From Candidatus Harpocratesius repetitus (GTDB taxonomy: Archaea > Asgardarchaeota > Lokiarchaeia > Sigyniarchaeales > Promethearchaeaceae): 32,000 nucleotides of DNA. Each line of letters starts with the position of its first letter. Position 1 is the first letter of the stretch. The notes below the pieces were generated by a model, which worked only from the letters and a program-made list of their open reading frames with translations, was not told the origin of the DNA and did not search any database. A program made the translations under genes and the position numbers. Below are positions 15,045-23,569 of this stretch, piece after piece. The DNA is taken from assembly GCA_021498095.1 (NCBI GenBank), contig JAIZWK010000001.1, forward strand, positions 2,490,001 to 2,522,000. Direction: 5' to 3'.

Positions 15045-17048
15045 TTAATGAATTAATCCTAGAAGTTCTTTAATTTCTTGTAAAACAGATGGAAAATCAT
15101 CAAATATATCCCTGATATCATTCTGGAGACAAATATTAAGAATTTCTTCAATTTTATAATCAGAATCTGCAGAAAGACCTAATATAAGAGGGTTTTGAAA
15201 AATAAGATAGATTATCGGAGCAAGATGGAAATAATAATAGTATATTTGATTTGTTTCTTTTGTTTTTTGATATTTTTTCATTTCAATTAAATATTGGGGA
15301 ATTAAATTCATAATATCGATTTTTTCAAAAATTGGAAGAAAGGTTTCTAATGTTTTTTTTATTATAAAAAAATTAGGCATGAATTCGGGACCTTTTTTAA
15401 TTTGAAATATTAATTCAACTAGCTTCGCCCATTGATAATAAATTTCTCGTTTATCCCTGTTATATTGAAGATTTAAGAACTCAGGAAGTCTTTTAGCATC
15501 ATAAAACGCGCGAAAGATATAATACCATGTTTTTTTTTCTGCCACCTGCCGTTCCCTATCAAAAAGTTCAGTTTTTATCAATTGAATAGCTTGATCAAAT
15601 TCTAATTGACGGATTAGAATTGAAATTTCATATTGGAAAGCAATTTCACCAATGCGGGTATATTTTCTGCGGATTTCTTGAATCAAATCCCAACAAGCTT
15701 GATATCGTTTCTGAATGAAATAATAACGCGCGATATAATGAAGAAAATTAATAATTGATGTTTTTCCATTGCCATAACTAACATTGATATTCTCCCATTC
15801 AGCAACAGAATAGTTGGTCAATAAATGTTCGGTGAAAATTTGCACAATTACCGGACTTGGATATTTAATAAAGATTTCATTAAGCTCGTTAAAGGTAAAA
15901 TCTAATTCACTAATTATTTGTACAAGATTTGTCTTTACTCTATTAAGATCTGGTTTTTCTTTAAAATGATTATAAAGACGGTTAAATATTGCCAAATTGA
16001 ATTCACTTTTATATTCTAATTCTTGAAAATACTGTAGAAATAACCCCCATTTGGCGGAATCTTCAAAAATCGATACAATTTCTTCTAAAATTTCTTCTTG
16101 GGTAATTGATTTTAGATGGGTTAAGAATGGTGGTTCTTTTGGAATCTCTGTAACAGGTTCCTTCTTAGGAGATTCCTGCATGACTGAATTTTGCTGCTGA
16201 CTTGAATTTAATTCATTGTTTTTATTTTCATAGATATCCTTATTAGGAATAGATATTGAATTTGAGATTACATTAGAACTAAGATGTGAAACAGATGAAG
16301 ATTTTAAGGTTGTTTCTTGATTATTTCCATTATTATTATATAATATTTTTCCCTGCGGGTTCTCAAGTATACTACTTTCTACTGAATTAGCATTATTATA
16401 TGTTTCATAATCTCTAGAATCTCCAGAATCATCATAGTCTCCATAATCCCCATGTTCATCATTTAAATTTGATTTTGATGATTCATGGGAAATTTGGGAA
16501 GGTATTGTTTGAAAATGATTAATATTTTTTAGTTGTGATTTAAGCGATTTGATTTCCTCGATTAAATAACTTATAATATGATCATTTTGACTATTTGAAG
16601 TATTTCCGATATTATTTTGGGCTTTATCTAAACGAATTTGGTTAATTTGCAAAATTGAATTCAAATTCTTACTATTTTTTAGCTTGTGGATATTTAATGA
16701 ATTCTGATAATCTTGATAACTAATCATTTTTTGATTTTTGGGTAGTTTAAAAAGAAAATCTAAGTATTCTCGACCTTGCTGTGTTATTGTATAAGCATAA
16801 TATTGTCTATTGGAAACTATATCCTTAACCTTTTGAATTAAGCCAAACGAGATTAGACGTTGATAAATTTTATAGTAAGTGCGACTACTTTTACGATTTA
16901 CTCCTGGATATTTCTCATTAAAATGTTGGATTTCAGAATGTCGAATTTTGTCGTGATGATAAAGAATGAAGAGAATTTTTAGTTCTTGTGTGGCTTTTTG
17001 AAGGAAATTATTCATGTTGGAATTAAGTTTGACCATCTGACTTGACAT
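15045..17048 (-). CDS. Winged-helix (PadR/MarR-like) N-terminal domain + N/S/Q-rich linker + C-terminal helical-repeat (TPR-like) region
   Basis: ELKILFILY...YYKIYQRLISFGLIQK...YAYTITQQGREYL fits a wHTH; the middle is low complexity; the C-terminus has amphipathic helix pairs (e.g. YQACWDLIQEI, FDQAIQLIK). Confidence 0.72.
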   Translation of the reverse strand: MSSQMVKLNSNMNNFLQKATQELKILFILYHHDKIRHSEIQHFNEKYPGVNRKSSRTYYKIYQRLISFGLIQKVKDIVSNRQYYAYTITQQGREYLDFLFKLPKNQKMISYQDYQNSLNIHKLKNSKNLNSILQINQIRLDKAQNNIGNTSNSQNDHIISYLIEEIKSLKSQLKNINHFQTIPSQISHESSKSNLNDEHGDYGDYDDSGDSRDYETYNNANSVESSILENPQGKILYNNNGNNQETTLKSSSVSHLSSNVISNSISIPNKDIYENKNNELNSSQQQNSVMQESPKKEPVTEIPKEPPFLTHLKSITQEEILEEIVSIFEDSAKWGLFLQYFQELEYKSEFNLAIFNRLYNHFKEKPDLNRVKTNLVQIISELDFTFNELNEIFIKYPSPVIVQIFTEHLLTNYSVAEWENINVSYGNGKTSIINFLHYIARYYFIQKRYQACWDLIQEIRRKYTRIGEIAFQYEISILIRQLEFDQAIQLIKTELFDRERQVAEKKTWYYIFRAFYDAKRLPEFLNLQYNRDKREIYYQWAKLVELIFQIKKGPEFMPNFFIIKKTLETFLPIFEKIDIMNLIPQYLIEMKKYQKTKETNQIYYYYFHLAPIIYLIFQNPLILGLSADSDYKIEEILNICLQNDIRDIFDDFPSVLQEIKELLGLIH

Positions 17049-18473: not shown

Positions 18474-20738
18474 ATGCTCAGGCAAGTAATTTTATATTTT
18501 CAAAATGAAATAATATTTACTCATATTTTTGCACAAGCTTATTCAAAAGAAACGCTTGAATTAGTTTTAACTAAAAAATTAATTGGATATATTGAAAAAC
18601 CATCGAGAGGTCAGACCTTTAATAAACCTCTTTTCGATTTTCAAGCGCATTTTGGAATGTTTGGTAATGTATTTTTTCTATATATTACAGATATGAGTGA
18701 TCGTCCAAAAGTTATTGCTAAAGAAATACAACGTGCTGCGCGCATGTTTCAAAAATATTTTCCAGATCCATTAGAAATTAAAAATCCATCGGTGCAAAAA
18801 GAAGAATTTATTAAGTTTATCAACGAAACTCATTACTTTCTGCATCCTAAAATTTGTTTAATGGGTCCAAATTATACAGATCGACAACAGATAGTAGATT
18901 ATTTAAAATTAAGCCCAGAACCTGATAAAAGAATAATGAATTTTGCAGTATATCATCAAATTCAAATTGGAACACTCTTTTTGGATTTATGGAACTTTAT
19001 TGAAAAGGATACTCTTTCACCATTATGGAATAATTACGTTCGCGGTTCTGATATGATTTTATTCATTCTAGATGGAACTAGTCAAGAATTAAATGAACAT
19101 TCTCTGAAATTTTTTCACTCACTACGCTTAAGAGAGGGAAAATACAGTAAATCGGCTATATTCCTAACACATGCACATCAACCTTCTTTCATTGGTAAAG
19201 AAAATCTAATTTCAAAGTTTCCTTTTTTAGAAAAATATCCTATTTTTGAAATTGATTTGGATGATGGAGATGGAAAAGATCAATTAATAAATGCTATGAG
19301 TGTTGCTATCGGTTTAAAGCAACCATTACCTCCAGAGTTTAAAATAAAACTTAAGAAAGCAAATGATTTCGTGGGTCAACAAAAATATCAAGATGCTTTG
19401 AATTTATTAAAAGATTTAATTCAAATATGCGAAAAATATCAAGAATTTAATTATATTGACGTTTTTCAAAATAAAATAAAAGAGTTGCAAGAAAAGCAGA
19501 AAGAAAAACAACTTCAAGAAGAAATTGAAAGAAAAAAAATAAAAGCTCCAAAGAAAATATCTTTTGGAAAATTTAAAGGTGCAAAAACACTCCCAACAGA
19601 TTTAAAAGGTAAAATTCTTCCTGATCTCAGCAAATTAAAGAAAGTCAGCACAAAATCCAAAGATAAACAATCGAGTTCAGAACCATTATCGCATATTTCT
19701 TCTTCATATTCATCCACTGATAAGAATGTAAGTGAATCTTTACCGAAATCGTCTGGAAATGAAGGTATATTACAAGATATTGATTCAGCAAATCCATTTT
19801 TTAGTGGATTAAGTTCATCAAAATCTATAAAAACTTCTCAAGAAAAAAAAGATGAAAAATCAAATCAAACATCAAATCATGCATCAAATCAAGCATCAAA
19901 TCCATTCTTTACTGGAATCCCAAATGTTGATCCTGGTAAAATGTTATCAAAGAAATCCATAGACGACAAATCTTCCCATGAATCTAAAAAAGATTCAACA
20001 GATCATTCTGATGAAAATCCTGATTTATTATTTGAAAATGAAATTGAGAAATTATTGAAAGAGCACGATAAGATTAAAGACATAAGCAACGATTTGGATT
20101 TTTTTGAAGAATTACAGGCAGATCATGATAAAGAAAAACAAAATTGGCAGAATAAACCCGAAGGAGTTAAATATCAATCAAATGGCACTAAATCTTCTAT
20201 TCAGGAAGAGAAAAGGGAAGCAATTCCAAATATCGAATCAGGTGCATCTATCGATACTTTTAAAATACGTAATTATTCTGTTAATCCAATCGATCTTTCT
20301 GGCGCGCCATTACCAGAAAATCATGAAAAAGCTGAAGAAAGACCTAATCCATTCTTATCAAATCTTTCAAAACAAAAAAAGGGGTATACAAGACGTAAAA
20401 CACTTACCTTCGAAGCATCGCCATTAGTTTCTTCAGAACAAAAGAAACCAAAAGTAAATATTCAAAAAACAAGAACAACCACTCCATTTATAGAGCGAAA
20501 TCCACTTCAGCAATTTACCCTTGAAAAATCACCACTGACACCAAAAAAAATTCTTACCCCCGCTGAAAAATTAGAACAGACTATTTTGATAAAAGGTGAG
20601 ACTTTAGCATTGGATTTATGTGAGAAATTCATTTCACAACTCCGTATTAAACTAAAGCGTACAATTACTGATGCTGATATTGAAAAGGTAGCAGATCTTT
20701 ATGTAAAGCAAAAACGACAAAAAGCCAATCAAAAATAG
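18474..20738 (+). CDS. Longin-like domain + degenerate Arf/Rab-like small GTPase domain + helical/coiled region + long disordered NPF-containing tail + small C-terminal helical domain
   Basis: MLRQVILYFQNEIIFTHIF...FFLYITD...IAKEIQRAARMF is longin-like. PKICLMG...LDLW...LWNNYVRGSDMILFILDG is a small-GTPase scaffold with substituted G1/G3/G4. Confidence 0.78.
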   Translation: MLRQVILYFQNEIIFTHIFAQAYSKETLELVLTKKLIGYIEKPSRGQTFNKPLFDFQAHFGMFGNVFFLYITDMSDRPKVIAKEIQRAARMFQKYFPDPLEIKNPSVQKEEFIKFINETHYFLHPKICLMGPNYTDRQQIVDYLKLSPEPDKRIMNFAVYHQIQIGTLFLDLWNFIEKDTLSPLWNNYVRGSDMILFILDGTSQELNEHSLKFFHSLRLREGKYSKSAIFLTHAHQPSFIGKENLISKFPFLEKYPIFEIDLDDGDGKDQLINAMSVAIGLKQPLPPEFKIKLKKANDFVGQQKYQDALNLLKDLIQICEKYQEFNYIDVFQNKIKELQEKQKEKQLQEEIERKKIKAPKKISFGKFKGAKTLPTDLKGKILPDLSKLKKVSTKSKDKQSSSEPLSHISSSYSSTDKNVSESLPKSSGNEGILQDIDSANPFFSGLSSSKSIKTSQEKKDEKSNQTSNHASNQASNPFFTGIPNVDPGKMLSKKSIDDKSSHESKKDSTDHSDENPDLLFENEIEKLLKEHDKIKDISNDLDFFEELQADHDKEKQNWQNKPEGVKYQSNGTKSSIQEEKREAIPNIESGASIDTFKIRNYSVNPIDLSGAPLPENHEKAEERPNPFLSNLSKQKKGYTRRKTLTFEASPLVSSEQKKPKVNIQKTRTTTPFIERNPLQQFTLEKSPLTPKKILTPAEKLEQTILIKGETLALDLCEKFISQLRIKLKRTITDADIEKVADLYVKQKRQKANQK
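19859..19902 (+). repeat. 12-bp in-frame imperfect tandem repeat (SNQT-SNHA-SNQA-SNP)
   Basis: ATCAAATC core at 19859, 19871, 19883 and 19895. Confidence 0.8.
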
Positions 20739-20786
20739 ATTGTTTTCGTCTATGAAAAATTAAGAACCAACAGAAGGCCAAAGATT

Positions 20787-21188
20787 CTATATATACAATA
20801 ATATTGATTGCTTTAGCTCTTCATTCTGCAGATAATGATTAACTGATGTTTCAGAAGAACGGAAAACAGCACGGGATAGAATATGGGCGATGTTTCGGTT
20901 TAATCTGGTTGATTTAGTATTTATTGAGCGCTTCATGTATGATTTTTTGAGTAAGAATATAAAAGCTCGAGTACATTCTTTAATATTTTTAATTTTAAAT
21001 TAATTTTCTTTCCAGTTTTTTTTCTGCTGAAGTAGAGCGACCGCTTTTATATTACTGTTTGAATGTTTTATCAATTTTCTTTACTCAAAATTCTTTCTGG
21101 CTGTATATTCTGATAAAGATATTTGATTATTATCCGAGGTTTTTATTTTAATTTTACTTGTTGACTTTTCTAAATGTATTGTTCTCAT
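20787..21188 (-). pseudogene. Possible degraded ORF (134 codons with two internal TAA) downstream of the LRR gene
   Basis: ATG 21188 lies 12 nt after the LRR stop, and one frame runs to TAG 20787-20789 with only two internal stops. No family recognised. Confidence 0.25.
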
Positions 21189-21200
21189 TTATCAGAAGAT

Positions 21201-22139
21201 TTACATTATAATCTCATAGCCGCTTTTTAATTTAAACTTAGGCCGAAAGTTTTTCTCCCACCTTATATATTCCTCTCGCAGTTCTTTTTCTGGAATTTGC
21301 TCCGCAGCAATTAATGCATAATCCATAAATTTAATCCGCTCAGCGGTCCAGACGGTTTCAAACCCGTATTCTTCAAAAAATAGTTTCTCCCATTCCTTAT
21401 AACGCTCGATATTCTCCTGTTTTCGGGGATGGATGAAAGAATCAAAATCATACATGAATGATTCGCTGTTTTCAAACTGGGTGCAGTCCCAGAACTCAAT
21501 TGGCAGAAATGAAATATGTGGGATGTGAGGAAGATTTGAAATGTTAATCCATAGTTCAGGATTATGGGTAAATTCAATCGGAATCTCCTTTACTTCCCGC
21601 AAACTCCATAATTCCAATTTTTCTAATGAAATGCTGAATGCCCAATTGATTGGAATCTGCTTCATGCGGTGCTTTCCGTCATTTTTCGGCGGCAGCGTTA
21701 TTTTTTCACCATCGAACATATTTTCATAACGCTCGTTATAAAAGTCTTCACCGATTGAAATTTTCCGCAGTCGATAGCAGTGGGCGAAATCTATGTTGTA
21801 GTCATCTAAAACTGCAGCAATTGTTGTGAATTTTTCCAAATGTTGGTATTGATCGTATTTTAGGGGTATTTTCAGATTTGGAAAGTTAAAAATTAGAATT
21901 GATTCTATTTTAGGCGGCCATTTAACTACTCGCAGTTGATTTTCTCCAGATATTTCAATTTCTCTGCAGTTGGTAAAAGCCGAAAAATCCACATCATTAT
22001 TGGAATAAATACAATCATATACTTTTAGTTTGTAAATTTTATCCACATCTTTCAATTTTTTGATATCGAATACTTCACCTGCAATTGTCAATACTTTTTT
22101 TTTCATCGTGATAATCGTATCTTGTATATGCCAAAGCAT
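21201..22139 (-). CDS. Leucine-rich-repeat-like protein
   Basis: LxxLxI-type repeats: FTNCREIEISG, IESILIFNFPNL, HCYRLRKISIG, ISLEKLELWSLREV; strong SD upstream. Confidence 0.65.
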   Translation of the reverse strand: MLWHIQDTIITMKKKVLTIAGEVFDIKKLKDVDKIYKLKVYDCIYSNNDVDFSAFTNCREIEISGENQLRVVKWPPKIESILIFNFPNLKIPLKYDQYQHLEKFTTIAAVLDDYNIDFAHCYRLRKISIGEDFYNERYENMFDGEKITLPPKNDGKHRMKQIPINWAFSISLEKLELWSLREVKEIPIEFTHNPELWINISNLPHIPHISFLPIEFWDCTQFENSESFMYDFDSFIHPRKQENIERYKEWEKLFFEEYGFETVWTAERIKFMDYALIAAEQIPEKELREEYIRWEKNFRPKFKLKSGYEIIM

Positions 22140-22144
22140 TAATT

Positions 22145-22152
22145 ACCTCCTT
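22145..22152 (-). promoter_or_regulatory. Perfect Shine-Dalgarno AAGGAGGT, 5 nt before ATG 22139
   Basis: Plus strand ACCTCCTT at 22145-22152. Confidence 0.8.
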
Positions 22153-22233
22153 AACCCTTTTGTTTCATTAATTTTCCCTTTTTTCCTGTATACCTTTATT
22201 TTCTTATCCAATGTATATAAAAAAAACGATATT

Positions 22234-22259
22234 AAAAAATTAACCCGCTCTTGGGCGAA
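22234..22259 (-). terminator. Weak GC hairpin + T-run after ORF 22268..23113
   Basis: Minus strand TTCGCCCAAGAGCGGGTTAATTTTTT; the stem is short (3-4 bp plus wobble pairs). Confidence 0.3.
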
Positions 22260-22267
22260 CTTATTTT

Positions 22268-23113
22268 TTATCCGACAAATCCCTCAATCGCATTTAAATA
22301 TGCATCAAAATTATTCATGGCACTTTCATCCGCATACTCTTCGTAGTATAAGCGCATCTCGTTTTTGTACTTCAAAAAGTATGCGAAACACTGCTTCAGC
22401 ATCAGTAACTGCGAATTTGAATTGAATATGCTCACTGGATTTTCAATCTGTGCGTACCACCGGTCAAGTCGGGAGTCAAATTGAATGTTGCCGTTCTCAT
22501 CCAAAGTGGGAACGAAGTATTTAATTGACTTCTTCTTACTTATTTTAATTGTTATTGTTTCACCTTTAACGCCGAATGCCTTGATGATGCCTTCAATTCG
22601 GTTCCATGTGGCAATGTATGCATTACTAATACCACTTTTTCCTTTCATCATCAACTTAATATCGTTGTAAAACCTTTTCTTTTTTAAATATGATTTTTTC
22701 AAATCCTGTTCGGATGAATGCAGTGAATACTGCTCATAAACCCACCTTGCCAGCACAGCCACCACATCTCGAATGCTGGAGCCTTGAAATTTTGCAAGAT
22801 TGCGGAGGTTGAAAAAGGCACGACCGTCTTCAAGTTCAATCAGCACCATTTTAGAGGCATCTCCACCAATTTTTTTATCTTCCATCATTTTCGTAAATGT
22901 ATTAATACCATCTTGATTTTCAAATATGTTTATCATGGATAAGCCGTTTTGGAAGGCGGTCCAAACCTTGCGCGCCTTTTCTGTATAATATTCGGTATCG
23001 CTTGCATCTGCTTCATGCATCCCTACGCCGTAAATACCGGGATACCGCCAATTCACCGCCCCGCCGTCCGATCCAAGTAAATTCAGCATATTCTCAAATA
23101 CCAGAAAATCCAT
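22268..23113 (-). CDS. Hypothetical soluble protein, probably the 3' part of a longer 5'-truncated gene
   Basis: 281 aa from ATG 23113; the frame stays open without ATG for 50 more codons to the TAA at 23264-23266; locally higher GC. Confidence 0.7.
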   Translation of the reverse strand: MDFLVFENMLNLLGSDGGAVNWRYPGIYGVGMHEADASDTEYYTEKARKVWTAFQNGLSMINIFENQDGINTFTKMMEDKKIGGDASKMVLIELEDGRAFFNLRNLAKFQGSSIRDVVAVLARWVYEQYSLHSSEQDLKKSYLKKKRFYNDIKLMMKGKSGISNAYIATWNRIEGIIKAFGVKGETITIKISKKKSIKYFVPTLDENGNIQFDSRLDRWYAQIENPVSIFNSNSQLLMLKQCFAYFLKYKNEMRLYYEEYADESAMNNFDAYLNAIEGFVG

Positions 23114-23287
23114 AACGAAGCGCTCAATTCCATTATTTATTTTGGGTTTGTTGGTTTTCCTTTCTGAATTAAGGAGAGTAAAAGTTAAATGAAGATTGGG
23201 TATTATATTGCCTTGATCTTCTCTTCTCAGAATAAAACGGTTGATCTGGGCACAATGATCAGATTAACAGAATTATAAGAAATAGAG

Positions 23288-23569
23288 ATGTTCATCATGA
23301 AAAAATTAGAAAAATTACAGCGGGATTTAAAAGTATTAAAACGAAAGATGTCGCAGTTAGAAATTGAACAAAAGAAACTTTCCACAGATAAGCGTGTAAG
23401 AAGTCGTGCTGTTCATGGAAAAAAAGAAGCTGAAGAAATTGATAAAAAAATAAAACACATTATCTTAGAGAAACGGAGAATTCTTCAGAAAGAGAAAAAA
23501 ATTAAAGCAAAAATTAAATCTCTTGAGAAAAAACTGAAACCTGAATCAACACAAGAAAAGAAATCCTGA
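23288..23569 (+). CDS. Small basic coiled-coil protein
   Basis: 93 aa, K/E/R-rich with heptad pattern. Confidence 0.7.
   Translation: MFIMKKLEKLQRDLKVLKRKMSQLEIEQKKLSTDKRVRSRAVHGKKEAEEIDKKIKHIILEKRRILQKEKKIKAKIKSLEKKLKPESTQEKKS

Follow-up and report, generated by a model that had tools for sequence, protein, structure and literature searches.

The longin-G-domain gene of Candidatus Harpocratesius repetitus

The gene described here lies on contig JAIZWK010000001.1 of Candidatus Harpocratesius repetitus, in a stretch of 32,000 nucleotides (positions 2,490,001-2,522,000; GC content about 30%) which, as the whole of the DNA analysed, is here termed the window, and within which all coordinates are given unless another locus is named. 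An uninterrupted frame of 754 codons encodes a protein in which an N-terminal longin domain is followed by an Arf-like G domain that has lost its nucleotide-binding motifs, and by a long tail (Table 1). That this open reading frame (ORF) is a real gene, as a sequence-only reading of the window had assumed, is borne out by the ORF list, by its translation and by an N-terminus, MLRQV, common to all the relatives aligned with it. The frame is not a product of chance, since 20 orthologs align over residues 1-300, with E-values of 1e-78 to 1e-146.

Folds of the longin and G domains

Residues 1-124 returned no sequence match in Pfam or the Protein Data Bank (PDB), and the Pfam longin, sigma-adaptin and sybindin models failed to match the protein even at E-values of up to 10. 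The AlphaFold2 (AF2) model of this region, built from 19 orthologs, has a mean predicted local distance difference test score (pLDDT) of 94 and presents the topology that defines longin domains, beta-beta-alpha-beta-beta-beta-alpha-alpha, which lacks a helix at the N-terminus and has an additional one at the C-terminus (DSSP elements E2-9, E12-18, H25-41, E48-53, E56-63, E66-72, H78-95 and H107-123). The top structural matches (exhaustive comparison, VIA) are longin domains, namely the N-terminal domains of AP-3 and AP-2 mu, VAMP7, sedlin, synbindin, delta-COP and Sec22, with Z-scores of 12.7-11.5 across 111-118 residues. A Lokiarchaeial longin domain (PDB 8yqg) matches at Z 9.7 and SRX at Z 9.3-9.6, and roadblock domains rank below longin domains at Z ~8. 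Foldseek results, with AP sigma and VAMP7 at E 6e-5, agree with the exhaustive comparison, and the longin fold that the sequence-only reading had proposed for these residues, suggesting a structural check, is thereby recovered.

The G domain is modelled with pLDDT values of 80-91 at residues 126-280 of the full-length AF2 model. The protein by itself gives a phmmer match to Arf1 at E 1e-3 and scores 19.5 bits against the Pfam Arf family (PF00025), below the gathering cut-off of 22.3 bits. A profile of 20 orthologs, in turn, retrieves Arf3p and Arl8 from the PDB at E 1e-8, together with a weak match to RagC (E 7e-4), and a Foldseek search with the domain finds Arl1, Arf1, Arf6 and an Asgard ArfR1 at E ~5e-8, with TM-scores of 0.70-0.77 when normalised by target. 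Profile and structure thus agree on an Arf/Arl-like fold for the second domain, in line with the small-GTPase scaffold recognised in the sequence-only reading. The PLW-type interswitch/switch-II signature is present, SPLWNNY aligning with RPLWRHY of Arf1. The Arf-type N-terminal amphipathic helix is absent, the longin domain directly preceding the G domain. Homology extends across both domains to proteins with canonical motifs (phmmer matches spanning query residues 1-290, E 1e-10 to 1e-18), and a canonical paralog in the same genome is matched at E 2e-30, which places the protein among the Asgard longin-GTPase fusions.

Loss of the nucleotide-binding motifs

The motifs were read from an alignment to Arf1 and to the canonical paralogs of the same genome. 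The G1 and G4 remnants, GPNYTDRQ and THAH, lie exactly where the sequence-only reading had put them and align, respectively, with the GxxxxGK[ST] of relatives and Arf proteins and with the NKQD of the canonical paralogs. At switch I, the stretch IMNFA contains no Thr. In the case of G3, the earlier conclusion that the motif is substituted stands, both its Asp and its Gly being replaced and the catalytic Gln missing, but the position given for it does not: D171 (nucleotide 18984) had been taken as the G3 residue, whereas the alignment puts N174, in W-N-F-I-E, in the place of the Mg-coordinating Asp, D171 being a conserved residue three positions before it in the same strand.

Fixation and purifying selection

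Five more proteins, encoded in Promethearchaeota metagenome-assembled genomes (P0002-P0006), are in the same state; they are 67-73% identical to the window protein across the first 310 residues and share GPxxx[D/S]RQ, WN and the lack of the G4 Asp. More distant orthologs (47-55% identity), among them a Lokiarchaeum ossiferum protein annotated as a Rab family GTPase, retain GPxGxGK[S/T]. Among the 81 genomes surveyed in the order, none held more than one copy at an E-value of 1e-40 or below; the motif-less state occurs in every genome searched within the window's genus (three of three), and an intact P-loop in all seven readable genomes from other genera of the same family. No second copy was found in the window's genome, in which the next matches are the canonical paralogs, which share 28% and 19% of residues with the window protein. 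The proteins without motifs form a monophyletic clade (support 100/100), hereafter clade D.

Within this clade, the ratio of nonsynonymous to synonymous substitution rates (dN/dS) of the G domain is 0.16 (P0003/P0006), 0.10 (P0003/P0004), 0.08 (P0006/P0004) and 0.085 (P0001/P0002), with dS saturated in the deeper pairs. The corresponding values are 0.04-0.07 for the longin domain, 0.01-0.07 for the C-terminal domain, ~0.2-0.28 for the tail and 0.11-0.15 for the whole gene. The motif loss is hence fixed, the point that the ortholog alignment advocated by the sequence-only reading was to settle, and the G domain is under purifying selection. That reading had also granted that orthologs with intact motifs might mark this copy as decaying; such orthologs do exist in other genera, in so far as the P-loop is concerned, but the copy is not decaying.

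The ratio of G-domain to longin identity is 0.90 within clade D and 0.90 among the P-loop-bearing relatives, and drops to 0.81 between the two groups, which suggests a burst of sequence change on the stem of the clade followed by normal constraint. Mean pairwise identity within the clade is 0.32 for the G4 loop, 0.60 for G1 and 0.71 for the rest of the G domain, and reaches 0.97 in the switch-II/alpha2 stretch, SPLWNNYxRGSD. At the level of sequence and model, the protein therefore combines the features of nucleotide-free pseudoGTPases: a retained fold, lost motifs and purifying selection.

Ordered loss of motifs across the family

An exhaustive HMMER search yielded 124 representatives with the longin plus G-domain architecture, and the 118 of these in which the motif columns were read fall into four groups. 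Group A is canonical (GFSGVGKTT, PT, WDFAGQ, NKQD) and includes two paralogs from the window's genome, L002 and L003, which score 55-67 bits on Pfam Arf (66.9 for L002). Group B retains the P-loop and NKxD, lacks the switch-I Thr and presents WDFQLxD in place of DxxGQ. Group C retains the P-loop only, its G4 being degraded to [T/S]-H-x-[D/N/other], and group D, made up of the window protein and P0002-P0006, has no motif left. In a tree of 64 members rooted on A (IQ-TREE, LG+C20+F+G4), B, C and D form a clade (100/100), C and D are nested inside B (99/95, 99/94) and D is nested inside crown C (96/93). This nesting of D in C in B, rooted on A, implies an ordered loss of motifs which, as read from extant sequences, runs from hydrolysis and gamma-phosphate sensing to base specificity and, lastly, to phosphate and Mg binding.

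Independent partial erosions were also observed in group B, where the P-loop Lys has become Arg in P0039 (GGRTT) and P0047 (SGRTT), and where P0035 presents Asn for the G3 Asp (WNF) with an intact P-loop, all three being metagenomic members of the family. Of the two canonical paralogs in the window's genome, L003 encodes 300 residues and L002 (L002:1501-3504, at C1:2149203-2151206 of the genome) encodes 667, its tail consisting of ~13 PPAPKTSVT-type units in tandem and of a coiled coil at the C-terminus that weakly resembles CdvA (E 5e-3).

Tail and C-terminal domain

The ~350-residue disordered tail of the sequence-only reading holds in part: a low-confidence region is present in the model, but it is not uniformly disordered, since it carries conserved short motifs and ends in a three-helix domain modelled with confidence at residues 696-753 (Table 1). 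Conserved tail motifs comprise a basic KIKAPKKISFGKF stretch, NPFF and TRxKxLTFExSPL, the last of these in the longer form KxGxTRxKxLTFExSPL, as well as F-x-I-x-x-(H/Y)-x-V-x-P-I. The C-terminal three-helix domain is common to groups B, C and D and absent from A, and the NPFF motif is common to crown C and D only. The NPF-type motifs are located in the low-confidence region of the full-length AF2 model. The sole Pfam match to the tail is a sub-threshold saposin-like one (E 0.58), and an ESM Atlas look-up with residues 283-754 gave no match. A search of the window's genome for EH domains (PF12763) found none, and control genomes likewise gave none.

Genomic neighbourhood

The upstream co-directional gene encodes a protein that belongs to no Pfam family and whose sole match in the ESM Atlas is a nameless Promethearchaeota cluster. 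The 69-bp gap between the two genes, 5' of the ATG of the longin-pseudoGTPase gene, harbors a TATA-like ATATATATTA box and AGGAG, and the latter gene might therefore be transcribed either alone or jointly with its upstream neighbour. A homologue of the upstream gene (366-487 aa) lies immediately 5', in the same direction, in L. ossiferum (L005) and in four loci of the clade. Its identity to the window copy is 44-57% in L005, L006 and L009, and the same gene order is seen in L007 and L008, where the upstream proteins align at 53% identity. A convergent Peptidase_U32 gene is found directly downstream in all five loci (L005-L009), and this shared arrangement on both sides supports orthology by synteny.

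In the window itself, the Peptidase_U32 gene is replaced (20739-23300) by unrelated minus-strand ORFs (21201-22139 and 22268-23113). Its ortholog in the same genome (80% identity; G000:C1:2431611-2432825) lies ~76 kb away, its orientation relative to the longin-pseudoGTPase gene being reversed, and this relocation and inversion suggest a rearrangement breakpoint immediately 3' of the gene. A pair of genes adjoins the longin-GTPase gene in a group B locus (L010:495-2779), in a basal group C locus (L011:4705-6723) and in L. ossiferum (L005:4659-6752), in an arrangement that differs in each of the three. One of them encodes a ~300-330-aa protein of no known family and the other a 360-450-aa HEAT-repeat protein with a weak, sub-threshold similarity to Adaptin_N (E 1e-5 to 3e-4). 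In the window's genome this pair is found at C1:2418999-2421238 (L033:6997-9245), beside a weak beta-propeller gene and ~87 kb from the longin-pseudoGTPase gene. Given the distances of both the pair and the Peptidase_U32 gene, the ancestral cluster has been broken up in this genome. The recurrent linkage to the HEAT-repeat pair may be taken as a lead to candidate functional partners, as distinct from evidence of binding. On the other side of the locus, a divergent gene (15045-17048, minus strand, 667 aa) has a weak match to PadR-like winged helix-turn-helix domains (E 5e-3). It was considered as a member of the conserved module and rejected, being present in the locus of the nearest relative (L009, 48% identity) and not in L. 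ossiferum.

Table 1. Position and basis of the features of the longin-pseudoGTPase gene and of its upstream neighbour.
Feature	Residues	Coordinates	Strand	Basis and remarks
Whole gene	754 aa	18474..20738	+	ORF translation and full-length orthologs; longin / pseudoGTPase / helical hairpin / motif-bearing disordered region / C-terminal helical domain
Longin domain	1-124	18474..18845	+	AF2 pLDDT 94; structural matches to AP mu/sigma, VAMP7, sedlin, synbindin
Arf/Arl-like G domain without nucleotide-binding motifs (pseudoGTPase)	125-282	18846..19319	+	phmmer, family profile, Foldseek, AF2
G1/P-loop remnant GPNYTDRQ		18864..18887	+	Against GxxxxGK[ST]: second Gly to Asp, Lys to Arg, Ser/Thr to Gln
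G3 remnant W-N-F-I-E	W173-E177	18990..19004	+	Aligned to WDFAG (paralogs) and WDVGG (Arf1)
Switch-II/alpha2-like stretch SPLWNNYVRGSD		19017..19052	+	Best-conserved part of the G domain; aligns with PLWRHY of Arf1
G4 remnant THAH		19167..19178	+	Aligned to NKQD of canonical paralogs
Helical hairpin and long helix, conserved	283-356	19320..19541	+	AF2 helices 287-301, 305-322, 325-354, pLDDT ~87-90; conserved columns
Basic-hydrophobic motif KIKAPKKISFGKFKG	355-369	19536..19580	+	Alignment; P359, F364, F367 and G369 invariant
NPFF motif 1	440	19791..19802	+	N440 and P441 invariant, F442 nearly so
NPFF motif 2	476	19899..19910	+	Confined to clade D
Helix	517-559	20022..20150	+	Alignment and AF2; confined to clade D
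NPFL motif 3	625	20346..20357	+	Alignment
Conserved motif KKGYTRRKTLTFEASPL		20376..20426	+	Alignment
Conserved C-terminal three-helix domain	~695-754	20556..20735	+	AF2 pLDDT 83-87
Upstream co-directional gene	382 aa	17256..18404	+	AbrB-like N-terminus, Lys-rich linker, helical domain

Relation to known systems

The longin-Arf-like fusion architecture is already published (Klinger et al. 2016, as cited in PMC4917890; Tran et al. 2024, PMC10933270). A count from 2016 gave five fusions of this kind in Lokiarchaeum (PMC4917890), and for MK-D1 the number of GTPases joined to a roadblock or longin domain has been put at 26 (PMC10933270). The Lokiarchaeial longin-Arf-like and Rag-like fusions resemble the window protein in presenting an N-terminal longin domain followed by an Arf/Rag-like G domain, come from the same phylum and have canonical members, L002 and L003, in the same genome. 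The published fusions, however, are treated as GTPases, whereas the window's clade is devoid of G1, G2, G3 and G4 and has a tail of its own, which carries NPFF among other motifs, besides a helical domain at the C-terminus. A search of the literature library at hand retrieved no paper joining the terms pseudoGTPase and Asgard, and none describing a member without motifs or a stepwise series.

In eukaryotes, nucleotide-free pseudoGTPases that act as scaffolds have been described in CENP-M and in the pG1 and pG2 domains of p190RhoGAP (PMC10211241). With these, and with AAGAB, the window protein shares the retention of the G fold, the loss of the G motifs and the conservation of the domain, in their case as an interaction module; the sequence relationship is nonetheless limited to the common fold, and the origin of the window protein is independent and archaeal. 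The structure of AAGAB with AP-1 sigma (PDB 9ddt) was one of those retrieved with the longin model, and AAGAB is a pseudoGTPase that binds a longin-fold subunit, while here both folds occur within one polypeptide. The pairing of a longin-like domain with an Arf-like G domain is also seen in the complex of the SR-alpha SRX domain with SR-beta (PDB 1nrj, 5ck3), but these are two separate polypeptides, SR-beta binds GTP and nothing on the window gene indicates protein targeting. In Rag/Gtr GTPases, lastly, the G domain is likewise linked to a second domain with the roadblock/longin superfold, through which these proteins dimerise, but in the reverse order: the extra domain of the window protein is an N-terminal longin rather than a C-terminal roadblock, its C-terminus is a three-helix domain and its G motifs are absent.

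A probable pseudoGTPase scaffold and its alternatives

We conclude, with a probability of roughly 0.75, that the gene encodes a conserved and probably nucleotide-free pseudoGTPase scaffold, a descendant of the longin-Arf-like GTPase fusion family of Lokiarchaeia. In this conversion, the gamma-phosphate sensors and the catalytic residue (the switch-I Thr, and the Gly and Gln of DxxGQ) were lost initially and the guanine-specificity motif NKxD after them, while the stem of the window's genus saw the loss of the P-loop and of the G3 Asp. The fold and a nearly invariant switch-II/alpha2 surface being kept, the G domain might serve as a permanently "frozen" binding surface, and the longin domain as a second platform, for dimerisation or for GTPase binding. 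The motifs of the tail (the basic stretch, NPFF and TRxKxLTFExSPL) and the C-terminal helical domain may then recruit further partners or a membrane. Whereas the folds, the motif losses with their order and fixation, the orthology and the purifying selection are observed, it is from them that we infer the absence of nucleotide binding, the scaffold function and the nature of any partner, and the "eukaryote-like adaptor" of the sequence-only reading amounts to an analogy. Several points weigh against our conclusion. The loss of canonical motifs predicts, but does not prove, the loss of nucleotide binding, and R137 and Q138, which are conserved in the clade, could serve an unconventional ligand site. 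With regard to the order of loss, the rooting on A is assumed, and justified only by the motifs that group A has in common with all other small GTPases, and the motif columns (~15 of 324) were retained in the alignment from which the tree was built.

If the G domain still bound a nucleotide, or some other phosphorylated ligand, through a non-canonical site such as R137/Q138, the protein would count as an NTP-binding protein or as an atypical GTPase. All six members of the clade do conserve the [D/S]-R-Q with which the former P-loop ends, and some proteins once classed as pseudoenzymes are described in PMC10211241 as having relocated catalytic residues. All five G elements, however, have changed together; an acidic residue stands where the P-loop had its Gly, Asn replaces the Asp that binds Mg, the Asp that confers base specificity has disappeared and the G4 loop is free to vary among clade members, so that we deem such a site quite unlikely. 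It is also rather unlikely, in our estimation, that the protein acts as the inactive partner or regulator of an active longin-GTPase paralog, joined to it through the longin domains in the manner of pseudoenzyme-enzyme pairs or Rag heterodimers. The same genome does encode canonical paralogs of matching N-terminal architecture (L002 and L003), a Lokiarchaeial longin domain has been crystallised as a dimer (PDB 8yqg) and AF2 homodimer predictions have been reported for such architectures (PMC10933270), but the paralogs are only 19-28% identical to the longin-pseudoGTPase and lie ~345-360 kb away.

The retention of the P-loop by orthologs of other genera might, in turn, be read as the mark of a decaying gene, or of a redundant paralog drifting after duplication. 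Against this stand the intact frame in a genome of 30% GC, the sharing of the motif-less state by six orthologs, the low dN/dS of both the G domain (0.08-0.16) and the whole gene (0.11-0.15), and a single copy per genome in conserved synteny. Selection, copy number and distribution hence rule out both the pseudogene and the spare-paralog explanations, to which we grant hardly any probability, and the pseudoGTPase scaffold stands as our preferred interpretation.

Implications

To our knowledge, the pseudoGTPases described to date are eukaryotic, and papers on the small GTPases of Asgard archaea treat these proteins as switches. In the present results, an archaeal lineage near the eukaryotic stem is seen to have taken a longin-fused Arf-like GTPase all the way, in steps ordered by the phylogeny, to a conserved domain devoid of nucleotide-binding motifs. 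They also call for caution in annotation, as counts of small GTPases in Asgard genomes include members predicted, on their motifs, to be unable to cycle.

HEAT solenoids, longin domains and Arf-like G domains are the building blocks of the eukaryotic AP/COPI adaptors and of their Arf recruiter. It may be speculated, as a long shot, that groups B to D provide the subunit bearing the longin and G domains of an archaeal adaptor-like assembly, together with the HEAT-repeat protein and the ~300-330-aa protein encoded beside it. If so, the series from A to D would represent the pre-eukaryotic passage from a GTP switch to a constitutive structural subunit presenting NPF-type motifs. Intermediates of the series are extant in cultured or closed genomes, including that of L. 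ossiferum, and offer a natural set in which to test the contribution of each G motif and to determine what a frozen switch surface binds. The series likewise bears on whether Asgard archaea already make use of motif-bearing disordered tails such as characterise eukaryotic adaptors.

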